From Thermoproteota archaeon (GTDB lineage: Archaea; Thermoproteota; Methanomethylicia; Methanomethylicales; Methanomethylicaceae): a stretch of DNA of 52,057 nucleotides. Positions 33,237 to 41,654 of this stretch are shown here, piece by piece. The stretch lies in NCBI GenBank assembly GCA_030055575.1, contig JASFYL010000003.1:1-52057 (forward strand), given 5' to 3'. Position 1 is the stretch's first letter, and every line of letters begins with the position of its first letter. A program made the translations under genes and the position numbers. The notes under the pieces are model-generated. The model saw nothing but the letters and a program-made list of their open reading frames with translations, was not told where the DNA came from and searched no databases.

Positions 33237-33800
33237 ATGGTCTCTCTGCCCACGCCAAGTGAATTGAGGGCAATGAGGAAAAGGCTTGGAATAACCCAAA
33301 AGGAGCTGGCGTCCGCGGCAGGAGTGAGCCAGGCACTAATTGCCAGGATAGAGGCAGGCACCATCGATCCTCGCCTCTCGACATTGCGTAAGATAATGAA
33401 TGCATTAAACAAAAAAGAATTGAACCAGCCCAAAATCAAAGACATAATGCATTCACCAGTACTGAGCGTGGGAATAGACGAGCCCCTCGAGAACGCGGTG
33501 CAATTGATGTGGAAAAACGGAATTTCCCAACTCCCGGTTTTCAGAAAAAGCAAAGTCGTGGGCAGCATAAGAGAGGACAACATCCTAAAGGAATTTGCGA
33601 AGGGCAATGTGAAAGACCTGCTGAAAAGACCGGTTGCTGATTTCATAGAAGAAAGCTTCCCGGTTGTGAGCATTGACTCTGACATCGAAGAGGTCTCAAG
33701 ACTACTGTCTGCAAAAAATCCGGCCGTCCTAGTGAGCGACCATGGAACGATGGTGGGGATCATCACTAAAATAGATCTCATTGCGAAATTTTTCTTGTGA
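33237..33800 (+). CDS. XRE HTH + CBS pair transcriptional regulator
   Basis: LGITQKELASAAGVSQALIARIEAGTIDPRLST plus two CBS motifs. Confidence 0.93.
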   Translation: MVSLPTPSELRAMRKRLGITQKELASAAGVSQALIARIEAGTIDPRLSTLRKIMNALNKKELNQPKIKDIMHSPVLSVGIDEPLENAVQLMWKNGISQLPVFRKSKVVGSIREDNILKEFAKGNVKDLLKRPVADFIEESFPVVSIDSDIEEVSRLLSAKNPAVLVSDHGTMVGIITKIDLIAKFFL

Positions 33801-33941
33801 TTGTGAGTTATATGTGATATATAATCACAATGGTGTGAGACATACTGAACCACTAAATAAACCTTAGTGATGGTAAGTCACTCACAACCAAAAACCTTAA
33901 AACATCAAAATTACAAAGAAGTACTGAGACGTGTTACAAAG

Positions 33942-34583
33942 GTGTCACGAGTGAGCTTCCAAGATAGAAGCGAGCGAGTTGTGGAAGAGTTTAAAGTCGA
34001 ACTCACGCTTCTAAGGAGAGACTTAGTTGAAAGGCTCAGACGGATAGAAGAGTACATTACGTTTCTGGAATCGGACATAGGCAGAATCAGGCTGGACCTT
34101 CAAAGGATAAGCGACAAAATAAGCGATTTGACCGTCAAAGAAATGCCAGCCACACCAAAAGTTGAGCCGTTTATGGCCAGACCGCAAGAGATCCCCAAGG
34201 TCGAAGTGGCACACCCATCCATCCCTGGCACGCCGCAACCAGTGGCGACAGAAGCCCCCAAACCGCAGGAAACGCTCCCGCAGCAGCTCCAAGTCCAAAA
34301 GAGTGCGGAAAGGAAAGATTTGCTCAACCAGACGGAGATAGCGATAATCAAGTACCTGATCGAGAATCCCGGGACTAAGAGCGCTACGCCCATAGCCACT
34401 GCCATAAACAAAGCCAGGGAACACGTCGCTAGGACTTTGAAGAAACTTTCAGATGAGAAGAAGATCATAAGGGACGAGACAACATGGCCCTACAGTTACA
34501 TAGTCCCTGATGAGATCAAGAAGCTTGTTTTTGAGAGCACGCAGAGCGCTACGCCGTCTACCGACAACATCACAACTCATTGA
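33942..34583 (+). CDS. Coiled-coil + Pro-rich linker + C-terminal winged-HTH protein
   Basis: Heptad-like N-terminus; LNQTEIAIIKYL...IATAINKAREHVARTLKKL...WPYSY wHTH. Start uncertain (33867-33942). Confidence 0.8.
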   Translation: MSRVSFQDRSERVVEEFKVELTLLRRDLVERLRRIEEYITFLESDIGRIRLDLQRISDKISDLTVKEMPATPKVEPFMARPQEIPKVEVAHPSIPGTPQPVATEAPKPQETLPQQLQVQKSAERKDLLNQTEIAIIKYLIENPGTKSATPIATAINKAREHVARTLKKLSDEKKIIRDETTWPYSYIVPDEIKKLVFESTQSATPSTDNITTH

Positions 34584-34983
34584 CCACCAGGTCGATCTGG
34601 TTGGCGGATACGTTTGAGACTAGGCGGTATTGCCAACAGGAACGGTTGCCTTTCCTCTCCAAGTACCCATTGGAATAAAGCCGGGTCAAGTAAGTCGATA
34701 TAGTGCTTGCCTTGATCGGCTCACGGTATCGTTCCTGATACAGCAAGGACAGATCCTTGCTGGTGAACCAGACCTTGTTGAGATCTGCCGTGATGATGCC
34801 CATCAACTTCTCTTTTGTGGTCTTCAGCACGGAGGACTTCTGTGGCGCTGGGGTGGACGGATCTTCGAATATTTGAAGGATCTGGAGAAGCTTTTCCTTT
34901 GACATTTGCCCACTCATGGCTACTGTGATTTGTTCGCCGTTCGTATCACAGATCTCTATCTTTATCTTCTTCACCCGGAACAC
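34570..34983 (-). CDS. Small protein with C-terminal winged-HTH
   Basis: WFTSKDL...YREPIKASTISTYLTRL...GYLERKG...WQYRL. Confidence 0.8.
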   Translation of the reverse strand: MFRVKKIKIEICDTNGEQITVAMSGQMSKEKLLQILQIFEDPSTPAPQKSSVLKTTKEKLMGIITADLNKVWFTSKDLSLLYQERYREPIKASTISTYLTRLYSNGYLERKGNRSCWQYRLVSNVSANQIDLVVNEL

Positions 34984-34999: not shown

Positions 35000-36100
35000 A
35001 AGTTAACTTCTGCACAGGTATATGAGCGTATTGTAGTCTACATAGTGTTGTTAATTACGGCATTTTTTCATGATAATCATGGTAAAAAAAGCCAAAATTC
35101 CAGACTTTTCCAGTTATCTAGCTAAAATGGAGTGAATTACAGTGAATCACGCCAAAATAGATTACATTCACAATTCTCGAGTGGAAGTGAAGGGGTGAAT
35201 CGAAAGGTGTAACATTGTAGTGGCGGTGATGAAGCGTCACAGTGTGACAATGATAAAAAACCGGTTACAAACGCAAGATTTTTTGCGCCCTCACTCTGGA
35301 ATGAACTAATACAACATCACTATTCAGGGGCAAAAGGTTGACGAGCTAGATCTTTTGCTCCCAGAACCGTCTAATCTGATGATCTCTTTTCACCATCAAT
35401 TGACAAAAATCACCATCAACTTGCATTCTAATGATAGATAACTTTAAATATTAGAGTTTATGATGTCGCTGTGAGTCAAAAATAGACCACAAACCAATAG
35501 TTTATTTTATCTAAAATTGATGGTGGAGTGTAACTAATAAGTTACATAAATAAAGAGAATTTTGGGGGAAATCAGAGTCTGAAAACCCCCAATTCTTACA
35601 AAAATTATGTTACATAACAGTTACATAAATTAGAGTTAACAGCACCAAAAACAATGAACTAAAACGGCCCTAAAGAGCACGCAAGAAGATCCAGTAAAAA
35701 GCACTAGCCAGTTGTGGCTTAGAAAGGAGGGAAAGCAGCCCATTTGTAGTATGTTTGTAGTCAGACGGGGGTTTTGGCTGGAAAGTCCTTAGCTCATATG
35801 TAAAAATTTCCACTGGAACGGTTTTTTATATGACTGTTTAAAAAGCACAGGATTATGTTTAAATAACACAGCGTGCCCCAATAAGAGTTTCTTAGTTCCC
35901 TGGCACCCCTAAGTTTCGCCTGGAAGTGTATATCACTTAAGTGTTATTTTCTACCTTTAAAAGAAAGACAGTGTAAATGTTAATACATGGTCGTCTATAT
36001 AAAAGTGTTTCAGTCGAAAAATCTAGAAAGAAACCTCTTAAATTTACTTGTCTACCTCTTTTCCAGCCTATGAAGGTCATTGGACTCCAATCGAAAATCA
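35000..36100. other. Candidate archaeal replication origin (oriC)
   Basis: ~1.1 kb with no credible ORF. Contains TTTCCACTGGAAC (35807-35819, reverse complement of the ORB core GTTCCAGTGGAAA), an ORB-like motif with G-string (35174-35196), six TTCCAG/CTGGAA copies and an AT-rich core at ~35440-35640. Confidence 0.62.
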
Positions 36101-36149
36101 GGGGTCACCCTCTTATAATTCCGGGCTTTAGTATTATCCGGTCACCAAA

Positions 36150-39938: not shown

Positions 39939-40034
39939 AGCGGGGTGGGGTAGCCAGGTTATCCCGCGGGGCTCATAAGCCCCGTCGGTTGAGAAACCCC
40001 GAGATCGGTGGTTCAAATCCACCCCCCGCTACCA
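39939..40034 (+). tRNA. Initiator tRNA-Met(CAU) with canonical 37/38 intron (39978-39995)
   Basis: A1-U72 pair, CGGGG/CCCCG anticodon stem, BHB central helix CTCA/TGAG, encoded CCA. Confidence 0.95.
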
Positions 40035-40085: not shown

Positions 40086-40376
40086 TTGATAGTTCTCCTC
40101 TCTGGAAATGGGAAATATTTCGTGCCCCCTCAGTATCAGGAGGAGGTCGTAAAAACCGGAAAAGCGCTCTTCAAGAAGTTGGAAAGTAGGGATGACCAAG
40201 CGTTTTCGGGCATGCTCAGGGACCTCCACGCCTTCGTTTCCTCAAAGGGGACCCCAGTCGAGATCATCAAGCCGGCGGACGTGGTCGTCCCGCCAGTTGA
40301 TCTAGAGCCGGGGATCCTCCGCAGGGTGTTGGGGATTGAGGCTCCCAAAGAAACGCCCGACAGTCCCGTCCCATGA
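40086..40376 (+). CDS. Hypothetical protein
   Basis: 96-aa ORF; its 3' end overlaps the 3' end of tiaS by 75 nt. Confidence 0.5.
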   Translation: MIVLLSGNGKYFVPPQYQEEVVKTGKALFKKLESRDDQAFSGMLRDLHAFVSSKGTPVEIIKPADVVVPPVDLEPGILRRVLGIEAPKETPDSPVP

Positions 40377-41654
40377 GAGCTTCTCCAACCCAAGCCTACG
40401 GGGGGGCTTAGCCAAGTGTCTCAGAGACCTCGGAGGGGGGAGGTAAGTCCCTTTCCTGACCTGCCTCGGGATATTTTCAATAACTGGCGACTCGGACTTC
40501 TTACCGCACTTCTCGCACTCGAACCCCTTGTTCCTACCCTTCGCCTTCATCCTCACGCCGCACCTTGGGCAGAGGGGGTTCCTCTTTACTGAGTCTACTA
40601 GCTCCAAGACGTCGAGCCTCTCCAGGTTCAGGGTCAGCTTCCCTCCAGCTTCACCTTCATCAAGGACCCTCACCCCGCCATACACGCGGACTATGTCCCC
40701 TGGCAAGAGCGCCCTAGCCGCCCTCTCTATGTCACCCGACTGCTGGTAAGCTGCTGCGTCTATGCAGCCGGAGCCGTCGGCGACCTCCACTATGGTGTGC
40801 CCACCGCGCAGGGTGACGGGTTTTTTCGAGACCGCGCCCTCGATCACCGCCGCCTGGTAGGGGGTCAGCGATGATATCTTTGGTCTGTTGATCATATGCG
40901 CGTCCGTTCCTTGGTTTGAGCGGTATATTATCCACTTCTCCCCTTCTTCGAAGACCAGCTTCCCTAGAGCATCGATCACTACGCCGGGGGACTCGCCCCT
41001 GATCCCGAAGAGGATGGGATCCGGTCCGTGTGGAGTGATCAGGATCCTGTTGGTTTCTGGGTCGATGTTGTTAAATGTGTGCGGTGCCGTCTCCTTGTCC
41101 ATGCTCCTGACGCTCTCGGCATCCACCTTCCTGGGCGACCCCCACGCATCCCTCTTTCTGTACACTATCAGCTCGAACGTATGGTCCGCCTCGAGGGTGT
41201 TGCCTATTGCAGCCACAGCGCCAATGAGTCCCCTTCCTCCCCTTATCGTCCTGAACCCAATCTTCGACTGCGCGGCAACCCTGTAGGCTTCTTCGAGAGA
41301 AAGCACATCAAACAAAGCCCTCCTCCCGAACTCCTTCACCTGCGGCGGCACCTCCCCTTCCAGCAGAGCTATCCCTGGCTGGTTCTTCCCATCGAGGCGA
41401 TCCCTGTTCTCCTCCACGATACTCGCGGCGAGCTCAAGGATCTCTCCTTCGGTTCTTGCCGAAGAGAACCTTAGGCAGACCGCCGCATTCCCGCGGGACT
41501 TCCAGGGGACGTTTGGGTTGAGCCTTATCAGGTTCGGGTAGTCTACGAATCTCGCCTCAGGAAGCAGCCTCTCCACTATAAGCGCGCCAACGTAAGTCGT
41601 GCATCCCATTCTGAGCGAATCCGTGTCATCGATGGCGAGGTGGTAGGTCGGCAT
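40302..41654 (-). CDS. tiaS: tRNA(Ile2) agmatinylcytidine synthetase
   Basis: AIDDTDS...GCTTY, LIRLNPNVPWKSRGNAA, GRGLIGAVAAIG, PHGPDPILFGIRG, OB fold and zinc ribbon, RHLAKP. Confidence 0.96.
   Translation of the reverse strand: MPTYHLAIDDTDSLRMGCTTYVGALIVERLLPEARFVDYPNLIRLNPNVPWKSRGNAAVCLRFSSARTEGEILELAASIVEENRDRLDGKNQPGIALLEGEVPPQVKEFGRRALFDVLSLEEAYRVAAQSKIGFRTIRGGRGLIGAVAAIGNTLEADHTFELIVYRKRDAWGSPRKVDAESVRSMDKETAPHTFNNIDPETNRILITPHGPDPILFGIRGESPGVVIDALGKLVFEEGEKWIIYRSNQGTDAHMINRPKISSLTPYQAAVIEGAVSKKPVTLRGGHTIVEVADGSGCIDAAAYQQSGDIERAARALLPGDIVRVYGGVRVLDEGEAGGKLTLNLERLDVLELVDSVKRNPLCPRCGVRMKAKGRNKGFECEKCGKKSESPVIENIPRQVRKGTYLPPPRSLRHLAKPPRRLGLEKLSWDGTVGRFFGSLNPQHPAEDPRL

Follow-up and report, generated by a model that had tools for sequence, protein, structure and literature searches.

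A conserved winged-helix gene pair beside the probable replication origin of a Methanomethylicaceae archaeon

What are two small winged-helix genes doing at the edge of an archaeal replication origin that has no initiator gene next to it? The question is raised by a contig of 52,057 base pairs (bp) from a Thermoproteota archaeon of the family Methanomethylicaceae (JASFYL010000003.1, contig C35 of a metagenome-assembled genome (MAG) of 1.36 Mb that is 88% complete). This entire contig is the window of our analysis. The names borne by homologues put the MAG in Methanomethylicia, near Candidatus Methanosuratincola. The two genes, which we call A and B, converge at their 3' ends, and B borders a gap that is very probably oriC. 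In ammonia-oxidising Thaumarchaeota, Bathyarchaeia and Methanomethylicia, gene B keeps to oriC, with the first origin recognition box (ORB) about 200 bp away, and the departure of the initiator gene has not displaced it. A first-pass annotation of this DNA had suggested that the pair might supply accessory, initiator or segregation factors. We tentatively favour a version of the first, in which A and B would be accessory or regulatory DNA binders linked to the origin.

The features on which this argument stands are the following.

33951..34583, forward strand: gene A, 210 amino acids, coiled coil, disordered linker and C-terminal winged helix-turn-helix (wHTH) domain; open reading frame (ORF) call
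34570..34983, reverse strand: gene B, 137 amino acids, N-terminal beta-hairpin/helix module and C-terminal wHTH; ORF call
34570..34583, no strand: 14-nucleotide overlap of the 3' ends of A and B, with convergent stop codons; read from the sequence
35176..35197, forward strand: ORB1, CTCGAGTGGAAGTGAAGGGGTG, about 195 bp from the start of B
35904..35925, reverse strand: ORB2, TTCCAGGCGAAACTTAGGGGTG, inverted relative to ORB1 and conserved in relatives
35808..35820, reverse strand: mini-ORB, TTCCAGTGGAAAT, nearly the Pyrococcus 13-mer

A probable origin beside gene B

The gap to the right of B measures 1,166 bp. Its GC (guanine plus cytosine) content is 0.37, against about 0.50 around it, and it is mostly devoid of ORFs of at least 60 amino acids. 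ORB1 and ORB2 form an inverted pair with the archaeal ORB make-up TTCC..GAA..GGGG, and the mini-ORB can be compared with that of Pyrococcus, TTCCAGTGGAACT (PMC1904270). Neither ORB 22-mer has another copy in the 1.36-Mb assembly, even with 4 mismatches allowed, and the pair is the sole such pair in two closed genomes of the same genus, G001 and G004 (1.52 and 1.54 Mb, respectively). ORBs of the type TTCCAATGGAAATnnAGGGGT are present in the equivalent gap in every sampled family of Methanomethylicia.

Strand composition points to the same place. In G004, which we rebuilt from 77 pieces for skew analysis, the cumulative GC, AT (adenine versus thymine) and purine skews all reach their highest point at 1,424.8-1,424.9 kb and their lowest at about 595-597 kb. 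The ORBs of this genome lie at 1,430.3-1,431.0 kb, 5-6 kb from the maximum, and long ORFs diverge from about 1.43 Mb on both sides. Since a unique inverted ORB pair coincides with a nearby skew switch in a closed relative, the gap beside B is very probably oriC. The first-pass annotation had read the ORB region as a candidate origin, and the uniqueness of the pair, its conservation throughout the class and the skew switch in G004 all bear this out.

In G004 the sign of the skew is the reverse of what the bacterial rule predicts: at third codon positions, the strand reading outward from the ORBs has C>G and T>A. Genes are nevertheless co-oriented with replication despite this reversed skew, with a terminus-side switch at about 595-700 kb.

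The initiator gene lies elsewhere. There is no cdc6 on the window contig, and the assembly has a single Cdc6_C match, located on contig C10. ORBs were expected beside cdc6 in the window's genome, G001 and G004, but a scan ruled this out, as neither ORBs nor gaps of at least 350 bp were found within 10 kb of any cdc6 (both genes in G001 and G004, one in the MAG). The A/B pair is about 190 kb from the nearest cdc6.

Linkage of gene B to origins across archaea

Our profile search recovered 402 cluster representatives of the B family among 1.84 billion proteins, with named records in Methanomethylicia, Bathyarchaeia, Nitrososphaeria and Caldarchaeales ('Aigarchaeota'). The phylum census, also by profile search, rests on a sample of 301 genomes, of which 196 carry exactly one full-length copy. 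For the cross-class scan of genome contigs, the seed was a narrower B alignment and not the very diverse alignment A3.

In Bathyarchaeia, cdc6 is divergent from B at positions -717 to -890 in 43 of 43 loci, counting those with at least 976 nucleotides upstream of B and including the closed genome of Candidatus Bathyarchaeum tardum. ORBs stand there at about -200, -450 and -630 relative to B. All nine Nitrosopumilaceae loci show cdc6, about 490 bp holding ORBs (TGGAGTGGAAATAAAGGGGT, twice) and a T-rich tract, and then B. In Nitrosopumilus maritimus SCM1, the record opens with cdc6 and closes with B (ABX13695.1, a 'hypothetical protein'), with ORBs spanning the junction, which brings this family to 10 of 10 in the order cdc6 <- ORBs -> B, the two genes being separated by 488 bp. 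We take the origin of N. maritimus to lie at cdc6. The species has a single origin, which has been mapped (PMC5333045, PMC4010727).

In Methanomethylicia, B is beside ORBs in all sampled families, with cdc6 about 190 kb away, and in one family (f6) B stays at the ORBs though A is absent. The gene order in this class runs PolD-DP2, CBS4, (SHMT, bCASP, DUF2070, HypF, HTH3-CBS), A>, <B, a gap of 0.8-1.6 kb, HTH7 and TiaS. In every origin-linked lineage the nearest ORB lies 154-302 bp from the start of B, mostly 170-235 bp. The junction between B and oriC is constant while its flanks change: one side is taken by cdc6 or HTH7, the other by A, by HypF or by other genes over about 3 kb. In the sense established for the haloarchaeal oapABC genes, B is an origin-flanking gene, Caldarchaeales being the exception.

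The first-pass annotation had mentioned small wHTH genes near cdc6 in other genomes of the TACK group (Thaumarchaeota, Aigarchaeota, Crenarchaeota and Korarchaeota). The B homologues that diverge from cdc6 across oriC in Bathyarchaeia and Nitrosopumilaceae bear this out more strongly than was claimed, and the linkage of homologues to origins stands after comparison of their neighbourhoods. In the literature searched, including by N. maritimus locus tags, we found no mention of a conserved wHTH gene beside thaumarchaeal or Methanosuratincola origins.

The Caldarchaeales exception takes two forms. In Caldarchaeum-type genomes (L040, 11306-12076; L058-L060), B lies off any ORB gap, divergent from PCNA and convergent with the gene for pyruvate phosphate dikinase; the divergent PCNA gene is a second link to replication. 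In family f35 (L042, 10128-11435, from a closed 1.55-Mb Nitrososphaerota MAG), B is convergent and overlapping with an operon encoding a ParA/MinD-type ATPase and a 140-amino acid HTH (helix-turn-helix) protein, a SegAB-like layout. A similar small HTH protein is encoded in N. maritimus just upstream of the A homologue (L056, 9155-9517).

The best explanation of these arrangements is that A and B belong to an ancestral oriC neighbourhood in Thermoproteota, of the form cdc6 <- oriC(ORBs) -> B, with A convergent and PolD-DP2 a few kilobases further on. In the present Methanosuratincola-like genome, the initiator gene would have moved some 190 kb off while B and A remained at the ORB-type origin.

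Genes and proteins A and B

Homologue clusters at 45-75% identity number 91 for A and 59 for B, and each gene has one copy in the window's genome, as it does across the class. On this sequence evidence, A and B are both real genes. The ORF of A at its greatest length covers 33867-34583 on the forward strand (238 amino acids). The GTG at 33951 is backed by gene callers and by most homologues; other in-frame starts are found at 33867, 33870 and 33942, the last being the GTG chosen in the first-pass annotation. The called start of B is a GTG at 34974, which gives 134 amino acids. The stop codons occupy 34581-34583 (A) and 34570-34572 (B), so the overlap of 3' ends reported earlier is correct. Its length is not kept in relatives (2 nucleotides in G004, a 15-nucleotide gap in G001), unlike the convergent adjacency of the two genes, which is. 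The same annotation had both genes directly flanking the ORB region. This holds for B, which starts some 200 bp away from ORB1, but not for A, which is located behind B.

The proteins divide as follows.

34870..34971, reverse strand: B residues 5-38, beta-hairpin and helix, KIKIEICDxNGEQITVAxSGQ..KE.LLQIL; AlphaFold2 (AF2) model; presumed oligomerisation or partner-binding module
34621..34818, reverse strand: B residues 56-121, wHTH; AF2 predicted local distance difference test (pLDDT) 85-91; alignments A1 and A3
33957..34139, forward strand: A residues 3-63, single long helix, presumed dimerising coiled coil; AF2 pLDDT 94-97
34140..34313, forward strand: A residues 64-121, Pro/Gln/Thr-rich disordered linker; pLDDT <50
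34329..34544, forward strand: A residues 127-198, wHTH and C-terminal helix; AF2 and Foldseek

The AF2 models are of monomers, that of A being built on a 34-sequence alignment, and their pLDDT within the wHTH domains is 85-94. They agree with the initial description of a coiled-coil wHTH protein and a small wHTH protein. Both A and B have the wHTH fold of the MarR/ArsR/PadR/TrmB superfamily, a three-helix bundle with a beta-hairpin wing. Foldseek searches against the PDB returned only generic wHTH repressors for the two, many at probability 1.0, and Pfam and NCBIfam gave no match above cut-off for A, B or HTH7, the small gene on the far side of the origin.

The model of B comprises a beta-hairpin (residues 5-25), a helix (29-38), a variable linker, the wHTH (56-121) and a C-terminal helix. 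In the N-terminal module, E10, D13, G16 and G25 are invariant; Foldseek found no structural match for this module in the PDB. Across the phylum, the recognition helix (LSTxSTYLxRL) hardly varies. In sequence, the wHTH of B is nearest to MecI/BlaI, with a match to the MecI profile at E 2e-5 over 50 residues.

In A, alignment A2 shows a conserved, heptad-like helix (RRDLVERLRRIEEYITFLESDIxRLRLDLQRI), a linker variable in length and sequence whose columns cannot be aligned, and a wHTH with the invariant signature REHxARxLKKL...RDxxTWPY. Conservation peaks in the helix at RRDLVERLRRIEEYITFLESD... and in the wHTH at KAREHVARTLKKL...IIRDETTWPY. The wHTH proper takes up residues 127-184 of the model and is followed by an extra helix (187-198). 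Its best Foldseek matches in the PDB are AspA, MarR and ArsR (E 8.5e-4 to 1e-2), and it has a weak HTH_24 match (E 0.003, under the cut-off). Matches of the long helix to the RRF and proteasome coiled-coil families were judged spurious.

Homologues of A, recognised by the signature (L/T)(S/T)REH(T/V)(A/S)R(L/T)(M/L)KKL and a preceding coiled coil, directly adjoin B in convergent orientation in Nitrosopumilaceae and some Bathyarchaeia, and lie about 3 kb downstream of B in other Bathyarchaeia. Those outside Methanomethylicia begin with a 19-residue hydrophobic segment (Kyte-Doolittle mean 2.3-3.1), which, to judge from its composition, is a membrane anchor. This transmembrane (TM) helix is followed by a coiled coil of 60-110 amino acids and then by the same wHTH signature. 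Neither the sequence of the window's own A nor its alignment reveals a TM helix.

Candidate DNA sites and the HTH7 gene

If A and B bind DNA, where in the origin would they do so? Four further features bear on this.

35002..35040, reverse strand: promoter block of B, with a TATA box (CATATAC) flanked by CTACAAT and CTGTGCAGAAGTTAAC; candidate operator for autoregulation of B
35529-35546 and 35608-35625, no strand: two 18-bp dyads TGTAAC-N6-GTTACA at a distance of 79 bp, arms conserved and spacer unconstrained
35391..35525: CACCATCAA repeats at 35391 (forward), 35411 (forward) and 35517 (reverse), 3 of the 21 copies in the genome
36150..36455, forward strand: HTH7, small HTH gene across the origin from B, weak HTH_7 match (E 2e-4)

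The promoter block of B, (C)CACAATACGCTCATATAC(T/C)TGTGAAG..GTTAAC, is almost invariant across genera of Methanomethylicaceae in which B itself is only 55-75% identical. Enrichments were computed for strict patterns selected after inspection of the sequences. On this basis, a CACAA-N10-14-TTGTG dyad around the TATA box of B occurs in 11 of 34 Bathyarchaeia loci (about 150-fold enriched), and the origin gaps of Bathyarchaeia show a GTGAA-N-GTTAAC composite at about 120-fold enrichment, with enrichment of a related one in Nitrosopumilaceae. The window's genome holds two copies of GTG(A/C)A-N-GTTAAC, one of them at the promoter of B. We infer DNA binding by A and B from the wHTH folds of the models, the invariant recognition helices, the conserved promoter dyad and the enriched composite motifs.

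The CACCATCAA repeats, conserved within the genus, are also concentrated in the origin, with 3 observed against 0.018 expected by chance. An unbiased 6-mer enrichment over 18 origins was dominated by pieces of ORBs and yielded no phylum-wide non-ORB motif; CCATCA and GTTAAC emerged as lineage-restricted.

The 18-bp dyads hold fixed positions in 8 of 9 loci of family f1, and half of the six genome copies of GTTACATAA, which forms part of them, fall inside the origin. Their arms differ in three genera in which the recognition helices of A and B are unchanged, a covariation argument on which we rejected the dyads as A or B sites. HTH7 is a different candidate. Its synteny is class-wide, and it holds the position that cdc6 has in the sister classes (Bathyarchaeia and Nitrosopumilaceae). 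Its putative recognition helix changes from LYRYL to LYSYL and LYKYL in the two genera whose arms are TGTAAT and TGTAAA; a third divergent genus breaks this covariation. That the dyads are more likely HTH7 sites is a weak lead from these sequence comparisons.

Two other elements lie in the same gap. A third ORB-like element, TCCAATCGAAAATCAGGGGT (36086-36105, forward strand), is found about 45 bp upstream of the HTH7 start and at the same place across family f1. Between the two dyads, at 35555-35597, is an imperfect palindrome with G5/C5 cores, GAATTTTGGGGGAAATCAGAGTCTGAAAACCCCCAATTC, which is present in this MAG and not in three other genomes of the genus.

Neighbouring genes

The genes and gaps annotated around the pair are an HTH3-CBS gene, HypF, the origin gap, HTH7 and a YgjP-like gene. 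The first of these, at 33237-33800 on the forward strand and immediately upstream of A, encodes an XRE-type HTH fused to two CBS domains. Its counterpart adjoins B in family f17 (L041), and in a Nitrososphaeria MAG (L077) it adjoins A. The gene thus encodes a third DNA-binding protein recurring near the origin, which probably senses a ligand through its CBS domains. Further along the window, an intron-containing tRNA with anticodon CAT (ARAGORN 'cata') at 39939-40034 lies about 270 bp from the 3' end of the convergent TiaS gene (40302-41654); TiaS is the agmatidine synthetase that modifies tRNA-Ile2(CAU).

Possible roles of A and B

How could two such proteins act at this origin? In the accessory or regulatory role that we favour, B would oligomerise through its N-terminal beta-hairpin/helix module, and its recognition helix would bind the conserved dyad that surrounds the TATA box of the B gene, on the border of oriC and 150-200 bp away from ORB1. 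Related GTGAA/GTTAAC-type sites within the origin would probably be bound by B as well. B would then be a resident of the origin and not its initiator, modulating the access of Orc1/Cdc6, transcription close to the origin, or the way in which its own expression is tied to the state of the origin, while Orc1/Cdc6 would stay the reader of the ORBs. A, the usual partner gene of B, may form a coiled-coil dimer carrying two wHTH heads on long flexible linkers, membrane-anchored in Bathyarchaeia and Nitrosopumilaceae, and would probably bridge or position DNA.

Several observations weigh against a role of this kind. A conserved place beside the origin would not by itself prove a function in replication: much of the 20-kb neighbourhood is syntenic class-wide, so that some of the linkage could be inertia, and the haloarchaeal oapABC genes hold the same position and yet take part in vesicle formation, hence position alone is no proof. 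Families f24 and f35 of Caldarchaeales carry B with neither ORBs nor cdc6 nearby, which implies that adjacency is not required for the function of B. The candidate sites raise difficulties as well. The strict composite motif is absent from the origin of G004, the proposed operators look in part like ORB half-sites (GTGGAA versus GTGAA) and might be bound by Cdc6 instead, and the 18-bp dyads are probably not A/B sites, given that their arms vary while the recognition helices do not.

The foremost alternative, doubtful in our view and yet a serious one, is that A and B are ordinary BlaI/ArsR/MarR-like regulators with targets elsewhere, kept at the origin by synteny or because origin-proximal, divergent promoters are favoured, as exemplified by gidA/mioC at the oriC of E. 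coli. Generic wHTH folds with repressors as best matches would fit this alternative, as would synteny over the whole neighbourhood, the location of B away from ORBs and cdc6 in Caldarchaeales, and the oapABC precedent. However, the junction between B and ORB1 outlasts changes of both flanks and the departure of cdc6, in three classes and at a near-fixed distance. B is, moreover, strictly single-copy with an invariant recognition helix, which is unusual for lineage-specific regulators, and its neighbour in Caldarchaeum is PCNA.

A more ambitious form of the accessory role can be imagined, although we think it rather unlikely. A and B would make up an undescribed origin-organising system, ancestral to Bathyarchaeia, Nitrososphaeria and Methanomethylicia, in which B marks oriC at a fixed position beside ORB1 and A, a coiled-coil wHTH dimer that had a membrane anchor in its original form, links the origin with the cell envelope or with another site on the DNA, the two together controlling the timing of initiation or the segregation of origins. 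A related proposal, improbable on present evidence, is a device for chromosome positioning or segregation proper, with membrane-anchored A tethering B-marked origin DNA to the envelope in the manner of Noc or of AspA-type centromere binders. The succession of TM helix, coiled coil and wHTH in A homologues outside Methanomethylicia invites this idea, as do the best structural match of A (the centromere-binding AspA of pNOB8) and the ATPase operon convergent with B in family f35. But the window's A has no TM helix, no ParA or ParB gene is found within 10 kb of the pair in the window, and some of the lineages with B at the origin lack A. The AspA match is itself weak (E 8.5e-4, TM-score 0.3-0.7) and of a kind common to many MarR/ArsR repressors.

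Could A or B instead be a non-Cdc6 initiator, as WhiP is at Sulfolobus oriC3? The first-pass annotation drew this analogy, which would explain an origin flanked by wHTH genes with no cdc6 as neighbour, and we consider it very improbable. Canonical ORBs are present here and absent from oriC3 (PMC4010727), and the same B coexists with an adjacent cdc6 in the sister classes. Each protein has a single generic wHTH and not a tandem Cdt1-type pair, with neither a CDT1 or Cdc6_C match nor an ATPase domain, and neither resembles WhiP/Cdt1 or the winged helix of Cdc6. Finally, we rejected the notion that A and B are regulators left behind by an integrated mobile element or virus, suggested by Pro/Thr-rich linkers, a nearby AT-rich tract and the frequency of small wHTH proteins in archaeal mobile elements, on the grounds that the pair is single-copy, vertically inherited and syntenic across the class (with B found across the phylum), that its GC content of 0.50 equals that of the surrounding genes, and that Pfam search and neighbourhood inspection turned up housekeeping flanks and no integrase in its surroundings.

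An accessory or regulatory factor at the origin would be of interest for several reasons. Besides Orc1/Cdc6, WhiP and UBP, we know of almost no proteins demonstrated to act at archaeal origins, and of none outside Sulfolobales and haloarchaea; nor, to our knowledge, has any segregation machinery been described for the Bathyarchaeia, Nitrososphaeria and Methanomethylicia lineages. The B family offers a concrete and cheap experimental target in cultured N. maritimus and Methanosuratincola. In MAGs, the B gene may serve as an annotation marker for 'orphan' origins, with ORBs to be looked for about 200 bp upstream. If A is truly a membrane-tethered DNA binder, it would bear on chromosome positioning and segregation in these archaea.

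Comparison with known systems

The closest positional parallel is provided by haloarchaeal oapABC, which diverge from orc1/cdc6 across the canonical oriC and often close the chromosome record (PMC7002104). In Bathyarchaeia and Nitrosopumilaceae this place belongs to B, with which the SCM1 record likewise ends. However, OapA is a small GTPase, OapB a DUF2073 protein and OapC a zinc ribbon protein, from another phylum and with no homology to the wHTH proteins A and B. OapA is the vesiculation GTPase ArvA, and oapABC, now ArvABC, act in the formation of extracellular vesicles (PMC10927574).

Like A and B, WhiP is a winged-helix protein encoded beside an origin without an adjacent cdc6. It has a tandem winged-helix architecture, whereas A and B have one generic wHTH each. 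It is related to Cdt1 and serves oriC3, which has neither ORB nor mini-ORB (PMC4010727), in contrast to the canonical ORBs and mini-ORB found here and to the coexistence of B with cdc6 in sister classes. Pfam searches gave no match to CDT1 or CDT1_C in A or B at E <= 0.1, and none to AAA or Cdc6_C (PF09079) domains, which places the two proteins outside both the WhiP/Cdt1-like and the Orc1/Cdc6 families.

Among repressors, the nearest relatives of the B wHTH are those of the BlaI/MecI/CopY family, under which some distant B homologues are annotated. The PF03965 (Penicillinase_R) profile, however, scores B at 15.4 and its N. maritimus homologue at 19.9, against a cut-off of 22.6 bits. Domain order is also reversed: in BlaI the wHTH comes first and a helical dimeriser forms the C-terminus, whereas B has a beta-rich extra module at its N-terminus and the wHTH at its C-terminus. 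No gene for a BlaR1-type sensor-protease adjoins B. By score, by domain order and by the lack of a BlaR1/MecR1 sensor protease or copper operon partner, B falls outside this family.

The best Foldseek matches of the A wHTH, AspA and the MarR/ArsR proteins, are all dimeric wHTH DNA binders. AspA is a protein of about 90 amino acids encoded with parB and parA. A differs in its 60-residue coiled coil and 60-residue disordered linker, in its ancestral TM anchor and in having no partition ATPase nearby. The pair does not form an AspA/ParB/ParA operon, and a ParA-like gene is found near B only in family f35.

The last comparison is with UBP of Sulfolobus, a non-initiator that binds an essential non-ORB motif (ucm) of oriC1 and works alongside Orc1-1 (PMC12141716). 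It is a beta-rich, saddle-shaped nucleoid protein of 111 amino acids with hundreds of sites, similar to A and B in neither sequence nor fold, and we found there no statement that its gene adjoins the origin (PMC12141716). UBP nonetheless represents the functional class proposed here for B, and shows that non-initiator proteins binding archaeal origins do exist.

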